DNA of 64,000 nt, from positions 79,794,001 through 79,858,000 of the forward strand of contig NC_042999.1 of NCBI RefSeq assembly GCF_006345805.1. Direction: 5' to 3'. The notes under the pieces were generated by a model. The model had not been told where the DNA came from, searched no databases, and saw nothing but the letters and a program-made list of their open reading frames with translations. Within the stretch, counting starts at the first letter, position 1. Each line of letters opens with the position of its first letter. The position numbers and the translations under genes are program-made. Source of the stretch: Octopus sinensis (taxonomy: Eukaryota). Shown one piece after another: positions 37,143 to 55,879 of this stretch.

Positions 37143-37212
37143 GTATATATATATATATATATATATATATATATATATACTTTATTTAAAGCAGCAGAAA
37201 ATTCAACAAAAT

Positions 37213-37250
37213 CTGTTACTCTGAGTTTCTCGTTGCCGTTCATCAGACAG
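37213..37250 (-). ncRNA. Minimal type I hammerhead ribozyme
   Basis: ctgt CTGATGA a-cg-gcaa-cg-a GAAA ctc-a-gag TA acag. Stem I ctgt/acag, GUA cleavage triplet. Confidence 0.8.
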
Positions 37251-38293
37251 TTTTTGCTAGAATGGAACCGATATATCAATTCAATCTATACTCTTACAAA
37301 CGCTACACCTTTAAAAAGAAATGGACTTGTTTGATTAGCCCTTTAGAAAAAACGGTTAATCTTCGAGCGATAAACAAAAAGGTCAAAAATATATGTATAT
37401 ATATATAAAAACTTATAAAAATTATAAAATCCGAGGAAAAAACTTACATTGAATAAAATACATATTGACGTTAATGAAGAAAGTGCAAATTAATGCATAG
37501 AAATTAAACCTGTTATAAATATTACACTGCAATACATATTTATATTAAAATCTACATTTATATATCAACATACACAAAATTATGCGCGCAAACGCCATAC
37601 ATATACAGACGTATGAATATAAATCTAAATATACACATAAAAGCATGTGTACATATATTCACGCAAACCATCTCGCACGCAAGTTAAAATTGATCTATGT
37701 AGCGATTCTCATATACTGAGTAAGGGGGGGGAACGAAAGAAAGGTAGAGAGAGAAAAAGGAACGAAGGTGGTGTGGGGAAAAAATTACGTATACAAGCAG
37801 TGTAACGGCATTATTGGCATATATGGAGACAAGTATACATACACAAGTTTGAATGGATACATATACATACAGTCGTGTATATGTGTACTTAAGCACAAAC
37901 ATACTTTCACTTACACATACACAGATACGCATGCTTACAAATACATATGCTTTGCTATACACATACTTATATCAACCTTCTAATTTTGACAACATTGCTT
38001 TTTTTTAAAAAAAACATTGCTTTTTTTAAAAAAATGGGTGCATTAATAAAAATATATACGAAAGACATATAAAATAAAATATAACATCCTATTTTGGGTC
38101 ATTTATAAATAATCAAGGTAATCCTATACAATACAATAACATGAAAACAAAGTTGGAGGTTTTTCCTAATATATATGTAGAAACATAAGACTTTGCTATA
38201 CGGATTAAGATCCGCATAGCTTGGAAACAAAATCCATCGTAGCGCTCATCGTTCAAGAGTCAAAATCAAAATCAAAAATACAAAATATATACT

Positions 38294-38888
38294 CTATCCA
38301 TATAGTATATTTATATTCGACATTTTAAATTTAGCCGCGTGCCTACATAAGTTCATTAGCTCACTTCTTTGATTCAAAGAATTATTGTCTTTGAATAAGA
38401 TGTACATTTTTTCTAATAGACAAAGCTTGCACTTGAAATTATTTTTGTATGTTCCATGCCTGTATGGTGCCGCCCTGTCCAGAATGCTCCATGTCACGTT
38501 GAAAGGTGGGGCTTCCTTTTCTTTTAGTTCCCAGACATATTTTGCTAGGCTGGTTTTCTTCCTATTCTCTGGGTATTTAAATGAATTTTTATGAGAATAA
38601 AATCTTGTTTCAAATGAATTTTCTGAAGCCCCTGTGTATGTCTTGTATTCCGATGAGCCTTCCACTTGCACCTTGGCTATATAAACTACTCCTTTCACCA
38701 GACATTTCCCTTCTAACGGACAGGAGCTTTCGTTTTTGAAATTACATTTCTTAATGGGCTCGGCACATGTCTAATCTCAATTAGCTTGCTATTATGTTGG
38801 CTAATGTAAGAGGCGAAATTTCTGCAACAAGAATAGCTAACCTTCAGGGTTCTTCTGTTAAATATCCTATAGAATTTATGACCCTGCT
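38294..38888 (-). pseudogene. PLE linker + GIY-YIG endonuclease (one frameshift near 38765)
   Basis: GHKFYRIFNRRTLKVSYSC / CNFKNESSCPLEGKCLVKGVVY..TYTG..FETRFYSHKNSF..TSLAKYVW..WSIL..CKLCLLEK..LNQRSEL..CRH. Confidence 0.92.
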
Positions 38889-39649
38889 TGTTGTCAAAAT
38901 TAGAAGGTTGATATAAGTATGTGTATAGCAAAGCATATGTATTTGTAAGCATGCGTATCTGTGTATGTGTAAGTGAAAGTATGTTTGTACTTAAGCACAC
39001 ATATACACGACTGTATGTATATGTATCCATTCAAACTTGTGTATGTATACTTGTCTCCATATATGCCAATAATGCCGTTACACTGCTTGTATACATAATT
39101 TTTTCTTATTTCGTTTTTTTCCCAACACCTCCTTCGTTCCTTTTTCTCTCTCTACCTTTCTTTCGTCCCCCCCTTACTCAGTATATGAGAATCGCTACAT
39201 AGATCAATTTTAACTTGCGTGCGAGATGGTTTGCGTGAATATATGTACACATGCTTTTATGTGTATATTTATATTTATATTCATACGTCTGTATATGTAT
39301 GGCGTTTGCGCGCATAATTTTGTGTATGTTGATATATATATGTAGATTTTAATATAAATATGTATTGCAGTGTAATATTTATAACAGGTTTAATTTCTAT
39401 GCATTAATTTGCACTTTCTTCATTAACGTCAATATGTATTTTATTCAATGTAAGGTTTTTTCCTCGGATTTTATAATTTTTATAAGTTTTTTTATATATA
39501 TATACATATATTTTTGACCTTTTTGTTTATCGCTCGAAGATTGACCGTTTTTTCTAAAGGGCCAATCAAACAAGTCCATTTCTTTTTAAAGGTGTAGCGT
39601 TTGTAAGAGTATAGATTGAATTGATATATCGGTTCCATTCTAGCAAAAA

Positions 39650-39687
39650 CTATCTGATGAACGGCAACGAGAAACTCAGAGTAACAG
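39650..39687 (+). ncRNA. Minimal type I hammerhead ribozyme (stem I mismatch)
   Basis: ctat CTGATGA acggcaacga GAAA ctcagag TA acag. Inverted twin of 37213-37250. Confidence 0.7.
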
Positions 39688-52843: not shown

Positions 52844-53001
52844 TATATATATATATATATATATATATATATATATATGTATATATGATATATATATATA
52901 TATATATATATATATATATATATATATATATATATATATATATATATATATATATATATATATATATATCAAAATAAGCCACAAGGATATCCAGAGGTAA
53001 T

Positions 53002-53091
53002 GCAGTATGATCGTTTCATGCGACTCCATTTAATTGGAGAATGTAATCATTTCATTACATCAATTTAAATTGTAGAGCAATCCTCAGCTGC
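53002..53091 (-). ncRNA. Type I hammerhead with long stem II (stem III mutated)
   Basis: gcag CTGAGGA t-tgc..(~60 nt)..gca-t GAAA cgatca TA ctgc. Confidence 0.65.
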
Positions 53092-53640
53092 AGAATGACA
53101 TAGAATTTAATTAAATTAGAACGCATTAGTATAATTTTACCCCAAATCTCCGAGAAGATAAGGAGATAGACATCTTTTATCAGCAGCATCACAGTTGTAA
53201 CTGAAATGTTTTCAAGAAAGACTCTGCCTGTCATTGATTTTTCTGTTATTTAGTTTTGAAATACGGTGGTGGGGTCAGTTTTAATGTATAGACTAGTTTA
53301 TCAAATCCTTTGTATATTTAAGGCTGAGAGAAGACAGAGGGTAGTATATGTTTGGAGTAGGTTCGGTGGAGTAAACAGACATTCGAAATGGTATAGTCAT
53401 AAAATCAAGATATATTTGAAGCAATGTCATGAGGTTTAGTAAAAGAATACTTCAAACAAGTTGCTGGCTGCTATTAAGGGATCGCTTATTAGTAGATCAG
53501 TGCTAATAGGACAGGGGAAGTCTTATCATGTAGTCCTATACTTAATTACTATAGTAGTTACTTATAGTAGTTAACTGTAGTACTACAGTTATACTAATTA
53601 TACTAATGTGTCCTAATTTAATTAATTTCTATGTCTTTGT

Positions 53641-53730
53641 GCAGCTGAGGATTGCTCTACATTTTGAATTGATGTAATGAAATGATTGCATTGTTCAATT
53701 AAATGGAGTCGCATGAAACATTCTCACTGC
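53641..53730 (+). ncRNA. Degenerate hammerhead twin
   Basis: gcag CTGAGGA ttgc..gcat GAAA cattctca ctgc. Stem III and the cleavage triplet have decayed. Confidence 0.45.
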
Positions 53731-55879
53731 ATTACCTCTAGATATATTTGCTACTTATTTTGATTTTAATCACCTTATTTTCAAATTGTATGGATAATAC
53801 CAAACTAAATTCTGGTGCCTCAACTTAAGTACCATATTCATCAGAATCTAAATTATATATATATATATATATATATATATATATATATATATATATATAT
53901 ATATATATATATATATAGATATATATATATATATATCACTATTTACGTATCTATATATCACTATTTACATATCTATATATCTATAGATATCGAATTTTGA
54001 CATTATGCAAACACTTTTAACAATATCGTATTTAAAATTCACTAAAACGATACATTTTCGACCTTGTAATTTTTTTCCTACATGTGATGTTTTCGTTCAT
54101 GAAAGAGATATTTTACATTCCTTCTACGACTCCCTACTGATAGGTTTGCTAACGTTCTAATTACTGTGCAGTTCGTTCGATTCACGTTGTGTTGTGCAGA
54201 ATACATATATATTGTATATTAATCAGGAAAACGCAAATTAGGGTATCCACTAATATGCCAATATATGATTATTTTCTTATACGTACTCAAGATAATATTG
54301 TTATTGTTCGTGGAAGGAAACTGGGTACGTCTGGTCTGAGAAATAGGAAACCGGTCTATCAGGAGAATTCCCCTTCTCTTTGTCTTCTATCAAAAGCATA
54401 GAAGAAATGCATATACATTCTCTTTATTTCACCCGAAGCCGGGTCGCCCAGTATCTAGGTTTTTCAGTACTTACCGATTCACGTGCATTTATATATATAT
54501 ATATATATATATATATATATATATATATATATATATATATATATATATATAATATCTATAGATAATATATATATATATATATATATATATATATATAAAT
54601 ATATATATATATATATATATATATATATATATATATATATATATATATATAATATATATATATACACATATATATGTATAATGTGCATAATTTTATGAGT
54701 GTGTATGTGGTTTTTGTTTGTTTATGTATAAGGGGTATGCACGTATGTATAAATTTTCTAAAACAGAATATCTGACATATTGCTTAATCTGGTCTGCTGC
54801 AATAAAACAATAGCATAACGCATCTACAACTATATTCCCAATAATCGTCGTCGTCCTCATCGTCGTCGTCGTCGTCGTCGTCATCATCATCATCATCATC
54901 ATCATCATCATCATCATCATCATCATCATAATCATAATCATCATCAACAACAACAACAGCTATCCTGCCCAGTTACATGACTATTACAATCGGGGTTGCT
55001 GACGTCTTCTACCACCAACTAGGTACCCTTCAAGCATAACATTTTCCATTCCTACTGTTTCTAACTTGCTCACTTTCATCTCCTTCTAGTCATCATAATT
55101 TCAACTTTAATCTTGTTTGTTGTCGCCATTATAAAACCTGAATTTCATCTCTACATTGCCGCCATGATCATCATCGTCGTTGTCATCATCGCCGTTGTCT
55201 TCGTCTGTCTGGTTGGCCTGATCGTTACCATTCTCATCATTTCAATATAAAAGATGGAAAAATATTCTTATTCTAAAAGATAGAATATAAAGCATCAACA
55301 ACTGTTAGAATTTTTCTGAAGGCTATCTTATAATGGTCGATTATATATATATATATATATATATATATATATATATATATATATATATATATATATATAT
55401 ATATATATATATGTTCAAGTGCACTAACATTTACTCACACACGCACACGCACATACACACACACACAGGCCACACACAGACACTTTCACATACGCAAGCT
55501 GGCCCGAAGACACATATGCAAATAGAGGTATATCAATATATATATATATATATATATATATATATATATATATATATATTTAATATATATACTATAGCGA
55601 TCCACACGTCATTCTGATTCAAATTTACATAAGCGATAATATTTATGGTCTGTATCTAGTATTTTGCTCTGTTTATCGCGCTCGCCACGACATTTGTTAT
55701 ATATATAAATATATATATATATATATATATATATATATATATATATATATATATATATAATATATATATATTATATTGTGTTTATGTTTGTTTTAATTAT
55801 TTGAAGTTTTCCTATTAGGAAAAAGTTCATTTCTAACAAACACACAAATTTGAAATATAGATTACAAACGCAATATCAC

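Follow-up and report, generated by a model that had tools for sequence, protein, structure and literature searches.

In the canonical scheme for Penelope-like elements (PLEs), inverted pseudo-long terminal repeats (pLTRs), one of which may optionally carry a 31-bp tail, go together with a preference for simple AT-rich targets (PMC3846280), and an inverted-pLTR scheme with a tail of 30-40 bp, the tail being ascribed to resolution by the endonuclease, is given in PMC8557442. Here we describe five PLE insertions in a 64,000-nucleotide (nt) stretch of Octopus sinensis DNA (RefSeq assembly GCF_006345805.1, contig NC_042999.1, positions 79,794,001 to 79,858,000 of the forward strand), referred to below as the window; comparisons with published elements extend as far as the cited tables and passages go. 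The Hydra clade comprises PLEs with a C-terminal endonuclease (C-terminal EN+), is characterized by the lack of CxxC in the GIY-YIG core and by a C-terminal CxxC...CxH, has (TA)n as the target in 26 of 27 families, and includes Hydra-1_Obim of Octopus bimaculoides (Craig et al. 2021, PMC8557442). Target site duplications are not discernible inside (TA)n, and the origin of the inverted repeats and the microsatellite bias are posed as open questions (PMC8557442). Paired hammerheads on opposite strands, 100-700 bp apart, have also been described (PMC4209133).

Poseidon_Ac (PAc), a PLE of the anole, has been assayed for target-primed reverse transcription in vitro (Frangieh et al. 2024, PMC11167929). 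It cuts AT-rich DNA and extends both strands, two internal RNA start sites bound its genomic tail, no target homology is needed, and dimerization is predicted (PMC11167929). The sections of that paper that explain the tail do so without addressing inversion. For the octopus loci, we estimate at roughly 0.6 the probability that both nicked strands of the target prime reverse transcription at two family-fixed RNA sites and that the two complementary DNAs (cDNAs) are then joined head to head, as in twin or dual priming.

Results

Anatomy of the five loci

Two pieces of an element stand head to head at all five loci, which we call L1 (37180-39790), L2 (40357-40477), L3 (46384-46907), L4 (47371-47530), and L5 (52968-53852). 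The outer ends at every locus, on both sides, are 3'-side RNA positions. One piece, the short arm, stops at a position called site 1 below, and the inverted piece runs on through a tail to a second position, site 2. The pieces, together with a one-armed relative of L5 (L6), are as follows.

37144-37179: (TA)18 target array left of L1; its far side adjoins the 5' end of a second PLE type (36976-37143)
37180-37994, minus strand: L1 short arm (pLTR), which stops at site 1, 37 nt past the hammerhead cleavage
37213-37250, minus strand: L1 type I hammerhead, with a 4-bp stem I, a near-palindromic stem III, and the layout of the published Hydra table; cleavage after 37217
37995-38888, minus strand: L1 unique spacer in short-arm orientation, with 3' untranslated region and a 5'-truncated, frameshifted linker plus GIY-YIG endonuclease (38294-38883)
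38889-39720, plus strand: L1 inverted arm, 96% identical to the short arm
39721-39790, plus strand: 70-nt tail of L1, which meets (TA)n at site 2
40357-40406, minus strand: L2 inverted piece, only the final 50 nt of the tail, 90% identical to L1, with the tail end as in L1
40403-40477, plus strand: L2 short piece, 75 nt, from a degenerate hammerhead to site 1, 84% identical to L1
46384-46550, minus strand: L3 short arm with an intact hammerhead, cleavage after 46438, ending 54 nt downstream
46551-46589: L3 spacer, 39 nt
46590-46907, plus strand: L3 inverted arm (46590-46756) with an intact hammerhead, and 151-nt tail
47371-47470, minus strand: L4 inverted arm (33 nt) and tail (67 nt)
47469-47530, plus strand: L4 short piece, with the hammerhead core from C3 onward and an end 28 nt beyond the putative cleavage (after 47502)
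52968-53136, minus strand: L5 short arm with hammerhead, ending 38 nt past cleavage
53137-53595: L5 spacer, 459 nt
53596-53852, plus strand: L5 inverted arm (88% identity) and 88-nt tail
1689-2990, plus strand: L6, a one-armed copy in which a PLE reverse transcriptase (RT) remnant is joined to an L5-family pLTR end

An original prediction made from the letters of this stretch had spoken of five foldbacks with one architecture, a description that held for L1, L3, L4, and L5, where two arms were found in the predicted places, and failed at L2, whose halves do not overlap: 20 nt are absent between them, the junction overlap is only 3-4 nt, and nothing folds back. The arms align pairwise at 96% identity over 815-832 nt in L1, at 98% over 167 nt in L3 (46384-46550 with 46590-46756), over 33/34 nt in L4 (47437-47470 with 47499-47531), and at 88% over 169 nt in L5 (52968-53136 with 53596-53764). 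The L4 pieces overlap by 2 nt at the junction; with no second copy in the window, L4 is the weakest case of the five. Its pair was recovered by self-BLAST. Among the 25 longest of the 1354 inverted pairs in the window, L1, L3, and L5 are the only ones not made of microsatellite, and the original prediction therefore skipped no long counterexample. The arms differ by 9, 3, and 20 substitutions, plus indels. The inner end of the L1 short arm holds two tandem 21-nt units with a T-run/A-run palindrome (37991-38034), and L6, which lacks the endonuclease and the greater part of the 3' region, has its RT thumb and linker fused without a gap to the middle of the hammerhead.

The shared shape could be an artefact, produced by assembly foldbacks at (TA)n or by unrelated later rearrangements singled out by the reader. 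The window is microsatellite-rich animal DNA, with 126 tandem-repeat rows and 93 merged TA arrays, and long inverted repeats are difficult to assemble. We nevertheless consider an artefact very improbable: the arms differ from each other by substitutions and indels, ends recur between diverged copies (see below), every non-microsatellite high-identity inverted pair that was found has the shape, and the same architecture is known in flies, fish, and rotifers (PMC3846280).

End points and tails

Measured from the cleavage site, the short arms end after 37 (L1), 37 (L2), 54 (L3), 28 (L4, putative site), and 38 (L5) nt. The extra tails predicted on the inverted arm extend past these ends by 70 (L1), 151 (L3), 67 (L4), and 88 (L5) nt, so that the tail ends in the window loci lie 95-205 nt after cleavage. 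The predicted AT-rich stop shortly past the hammerhead was likewise borne out: 9, 9, 10, and 9 of the last 10 nt of the short ends are A or T, with a combined p=0.016 that is inflated by the way the boundaries were drawn.

The end points are stereotyped in the window copies, as had been proposed. The short ends of L1 and L2 halt at the identical AAATAAAG, an identity already noted in the original prediction, and their tail ends are also identical; L6, an L5-family copy with identity in 77 of 89 tail columns, halts at the L5 tail end. Among diverged copies, site 1 thus recurs in the one testable pair (L1/L2, 84%) and site 2 in both testable pairs (L1/L2 and L5/L6).

Published Hydra consensus sequences were compared in the same way, the distance from cleavage to the consensus end being computed for 24 of 27 families (two have no hammerhead row, and one has a 5' copy only). 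Ten ends lie at 30-48 nt, three at 63-88 nt, ten at 97-153 nt, and one at 355 nt (PMC8557442). A fit with two components was favored (bootstrap p=0.035 for the full set of families and p=0.005-0.01 once the 355-nt outlier is removed), the means being ~41-44 and ~116-120 nt. The window short ends (28-54 nt) and tail ends (95-205 nt) are bracketed by these two groups.

Folding found no shared structure around site 1 and in the tails. A 7-nt motif, T[AG]AGTA[CT], which was defined post hoc, precedes the tail end by exactly 40 nt in L1, L2, and L4 and by 20 nt in L5 and L6; L3 lacks it.

39744-39750, 40397-40403, 47411-47417, 53826-53832, and 2964-2970: copies of T[AG]AGTA[CT]

Counting both strands, 103 kb of unmasked sequence contains 53 occurrences of the motif. 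It is a possible candidate for a protein-binding ruler. The four families were predicted to be unrelated, and this stands at the BLAST level, where they are distinct; the tails of L1 and L4, however, are weakly similar (p=0.0025, post hoc). A score equal to that of the L1 tail was reached in 8 of 1268 tiles, three of which are the tails of L1, L2, and L4.

Arm content and the origin of the inversion

The L1 spacer encodes the linker and endonuclease on the strand of the short arm, the L4 hammerhead core is also on the short-arm strand, and the tail is on the other arm. In both of the overlapping loci that could be oriented, therefore, each arm holds sequence missing from the other. Because the spacer belongs to the short arm, a single self-copying cDNA could not yield L1 or L4 without a later deletion. 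The L2 geometry, with disjoint halves and a 20-nt gap, is the twin-priming geometry of LINE-1 (PMC2837659).

These arrangements bear on the mechanism put forward in the original prediction: microhomology with (TA)n would prime a single cDNA, which would then turn back on, or change template to, its own product, and synthesis would finish with annealing at an AT-rich position downstream of the hammerhead. Such a self-copy would hold only first-arm sequence, so that spacer and tail would be expected on one arm, the opposite of what is seen in L1 and L4, and it does not account for the lack of overlap in L2. The AT-rich short ends (combined p=0.016, as qualified above), the junction overlaps of 2-4 nt in L2 and L4, the near-identical arms of L1 and L3, and a 5/6 match to (TA)n past the L3 break all agree with it. 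Target homology was tested at the short ends, the element sequence beyond the tail ends lying outside the window. Strict terminal homology with (TA)n at the five short ends amounts to 0, 0, 0, about 1, and 2 nt; when the 6-mer past the break was compared with (TA)n, arm positions that did as well made up 2% in L3, 33% in L1, 50% in L4, and 67% in L5 (combined p=0.15). Initiation in vitro is likewise not homologous to the target (PMC11167929). We regard a single cDNA that folds back or switches template as distinctly unlikely, and microhomology priming on (TA)n was not supported.

A self-primed hairpin, possibly formed on antisense RNA, could instead give an inverted DNA intermediate whose resolution by the endonuclease at two positions would leave a tail on just one of the arms; PMC3846280 put forward the self-priming, and PMC8557442 the resolution of the tail by the endonuclease. 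This explains the head-to-head geometry, the fixed ends, and a tail on either arm, and the Drosophila virilis endonuclease was reported to require the tail for recognition (as cited in PMC11167929). It would require, however, that the whole stem be lost from one arm in L2, no palindrome is found at the L1 or L3 junction, and the tail boundaries seen in vitro are reverse-transcription start sites on target-primed DNA (PMC11167929). Hairpin resolution therefore seems unlikely to us, though it deserves more credit than a folded-back cDNA.

The two arms of L5 were compared with L6 (2792-2902). The final 46 columns show a short arm close to L6 and a tail arm with most of the private changes, and upstream of these columns the arms group together. 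Two templates or recombination could account for such uneven differences; in a relative-rate test against L6 for two templates, the counts were 9 versus 5 (p=0.42), which is not significant.

Targeting of (TA)n arrays

Every one of the 10 outer ends has a perfect (TA)5+ run no more than 6 nt away. In 21 control repeat intervals, this is true of 1 of the 42 ends (Fisher p=7e-10), and it is true of 1.9% of the non-TA positions overall; the TA enrichment over background that the original prediction implied was thus found. One TA-associated short interspersed element (SINE) family was left out of the control because the SINE carries and adjoins TA arrays itself. Of the hit ends of that family, 4 of 22 fall within 6 nt, and TA association is therefore not unique to PLEs in the window. 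The arrays beside the loci are longer than the others (median, 38.5 nt [n=10] versus 24 nt [n=83]; p=0.009), and the summed array length per locus is 83, versus 51 for a length-biased draw (p=0.014). A preference for long arrays explains this equally as well as expansion after insertion.

At L2, the target itself can be recognized.

40135-40678, minus strand: SINE copy that hosts L2 in its internal (CA)n(TA)n array; halves at 40549-40678 and 40135-40165

The first half of the SINE lies to the right of L2 (102 of 132 columns) and the start of the second half to the left (27 of 31 columns; score of 40 versus a shuffle maximum of 23). L2 sits inside the internal TA array of the SINE, and the target therefore predates the insertion.

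Protein type and hammerheads

The PLE identity of the loci, part of the original prediction, was supported. On the minus strand, the L1 spacer carries a frameshifted linker and GIY-YIG endonuclease with 5188 relatives at E<=0.001 (HMMER). Its best match is a 713-amino-acid RT-endonuclease protein (residues 563-707; 56%; E, 6e-52), and the RT of L6 matches the same protein (44%; E, 1e-34). That homologue carries DKT and RWR, in an RT region that is missing from the truncated window copies and for which DKT and RWK are the Hydra motifs. CxxC inside the GIY-YIG core (the CCHH motif) is absent from L1 and from all 150 relatives listed, and the C-terminal CxxC...CxH, around conserved E and N residues, is present in L1 and in 133 of the 150. 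A "Penelope clade" label for L1 was dropped after this motif test. A linker pattern upstream of the endonuclease is found in 118 of the 150 relatives listed, and the best match has CxCX5C, the Hydra form; in the frameshifted L1 copy the second Cys is Phe, and for this reason L1 is filed as Hydra-like and not as a proven Hydra member. Judged from sequence, the elements are 5'-truncated Penelope-like retrotransposons that likely belong to the Hydra clade, the placement of L3, L4, and L5 resting on the RNA layout or on L6 only.

Named relatives of the retroelement proteins of the window come from Argonauta hians and Octopus bimaculoides (68%). Pfam gave no name to any PLE protein of the window, and a word-index search with the L1 endonuclease found no match among longer proteins. 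There is no coding sequence in L2, L3, or L4, and none was detected in the L5 spacer; orienting that spacer with profiles from relatives failed on both strands (best empirical p, 0.05).

A hammerhead had been predicted at each locus. Intact type I hammerheads, by a strict descriptor, are present in the L1 short arm and in both L3 arms (3 matches in the window versus 0.14 per shuffled window), whereas those of L2, L4, and L5 are degenerate: L2 has an altered core, L4 lacks the 5' strand of stem I, and L5, with a 5-bp stem I and a long stem II, has a degenerate stem III with one mismatch. These degenerate layouts resemble those of the published Hydra table (PMC8557442). Descriptors were used instead of Rfam, whose models found no hammerhead in the whole window or in the L1 and L3 pieces; two earlier descriptors had missed variants. 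In L1, L4, and L5 (37180-37250, 47469-47502, and 53006-53090), the first position of stem II is a like-with-like mismatch (A.A or U.U) in place of the usual G-C, and the stem II regions measure 53 nt in L3 and 63 nt in L5. We also considered L4 as a single hammerhead with a 33-bp stem I. This was disfavored: two bases part the stem from the core, the stem reaches no further than the TA run, and the extension on the minus strand is similar to the L1 tail. The L3 junction and the region upstream of the hammerhead in Hydra-1_Obim have a 14-nt match, a hint that the L3 spacer goes with the short arm; the match was noticed post hoc, the similarity does not extend, and it was not used as evidence.

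Other repeats in the window

A second PLE type is present in three one-armed copies.

51900-52843, minus strand: second PLE type
36976-37143, minus strand: second PLE type
31793-31957, minus strand: second PLE type

This type has a GIY-YIG with CxxC inside the core, and two copies have a hammerhead-like motif with a changed core base. For two of the copies, the adjoining TA array is also the one next to the L1 or L5 short arm, and no inverted arm is found in any. The remaining repeats are as follows.

46946-47329, 21915-22312, 36446-36930, 39911-40140, and others: an abundant family of SINE-like repeats that contains a (CA)n(TA)n array internally and also tends to adjoin TA arrays
40699-41110: old self-inverted element, ~410 nt, 64% identity, possibly a miniature inverted-repeat transposable element
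11453-11562 and 48413-48522: a 110-nt repeat present twice, its second copy in a region that is perhaps, as a guess, a decayed DNA transposon

There are two more SINE-like families, one of them beside (TAA)n arrays.

Discussion

In the double-priming reading that we favor, the element endonuclease would nick both strands of a (TA)n array, and each free 3' end would prime reverse transcription at one of two family-fixed RNA sites, with site 1 at 28-54 nt past the hammerhead cleavage, site 2 a further 67-151 nt on, and the tail as the sequence between them. Both cDNAs would terminate prematurely, at points that vary, before a head-to-head joining with little or no microhomology and then fill-in. 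Non-overlapping cDNAs, as at L2, would give a LINE-1-like twin-priming product; overlapping cDNAs, as at L1, L3, L4, and L5, would yield inverted arms, a result that would call for strand displacement or a second RNA (dual priming). We infer that two primings in one event create the inversion. Both the in vitro behavior of PAc (PMC11167929) and the two groups of Hydra consensus ends agree with such a reading.

Several points weigh against this reading. The sample is small, five loci in one 64-kb window, and the spacer orientation of L3 and L5 is not established. A foldback that lost its center asymmetrically after insertion, as inverted repeats can, might come to look like L1, L2, or L4. The 5/6 match to (TA)n lies just past the L3 short end, with weaker matches in L1/L2, and imperfect annealing may contribute. 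Four PLE copies in the window are one-armed, so that two-armed products are not obligatory. The published consensus ends are the choices of curators and not mapped start sites. Finally, the PLE studied in vitro is a Poseidon element for which the cited passages report no start-site difference between strands and do not address inverted pLTRs (PMC11167929).

A broader proposal is that programmed double priming, in which a dimeric RT-endonuclease would use both nicked strands and two fixed RNA start sites, routinely produces the inverted pLTR with a single tail; we would call this an even bet. Under this proposal, site 1 of Hydra-type elements would lie ~30-55 nt and site 2 ~95-205 nt past the hammerhead, possibly measured from the short tail motif. 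If double priming is indeed routine, double-strand breaks and long inverted repeats would be made inside microsatellites. The mechanistic value of the loci is that they suggest a link between tail formation and inversion, and tiny non-overlapping copies like L2 make double priming testable from genome sequence alone. An account of PLE inversion by double priming was not found in print in a search that took in few subscription papers, and older PLE reviews may state one.

Among known systems, LINE-1 twin priming and the proposed dual priming are alike in that a second strand primes a second cDNA, giving head-to-head fragments, with either an internal deletion, as in L2, or two RNAs for overlapping arms (PMC2837659). 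Inverted, non-overlapping fragments with an internal deletion, the mark of LINE-1 twin priming, are found only at L2, the fragments of L1, L3, L4, and L5 being overlapping. LINE-1 priming takes place first at the poly(A) tail and then at a variable site that homology to the target determines (PMC2837659), whereas the two sites of the window loci are both internal and fixed, and large overlaps prevail. The window loci would work like twin priming and not by the LINE-1 mechanism, target microhomology being no better than chance (combined p=0.15).

PAc shares with the window loci two start sites downstream of the hammerhead that define the tail, extension of both strands, AT-rich cuts, and independence of target homology (PMC11167929). 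It differs in belonging to another clade and in having its start sites in an AC-rich stem-loop, of which no shared equivalent was seen in the window loci (PMC11167929). Pen2a of Adineta vaga (PMC3846280) and the scheme in PMC8557442 have in common with the window loci an inverted 5'-truncated pLTR, an extension at one end, and AT-rich targets. The published tails, however, are 30-40 bp, versus 67-151 nt in the window, and the published models are self-priming or endonuclease resolution.

The Hydra clade resembles the loci in several respects described in its tables and text (PMC8557442): the L1 GIY-YIG has no internal CxxC and is followed by the C-terminal CxxC...CxH, stems I and III of L1 are nearly those of Hydra-2_aMil, the first stem II pair in L4 and L5 is of the U.U type, as in many listed families, Hydra-1_Obim is annotated "copies terminate at same site," at 36 nt after cleavage, and Penelope-13_HM has a 5'-truncated inverted copy. 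The differences are an L1 linker without the second Cys of CxCX5C and long stem II inserts in L3 and L5 (53 and 63 nt). The window hammerheads differ from that of Hydra-1_Obim, and the loci therefore belong to other families. The anatomy and the (TA)n target are already published, and the loci are for the most part new families of a known kind and not a new system.

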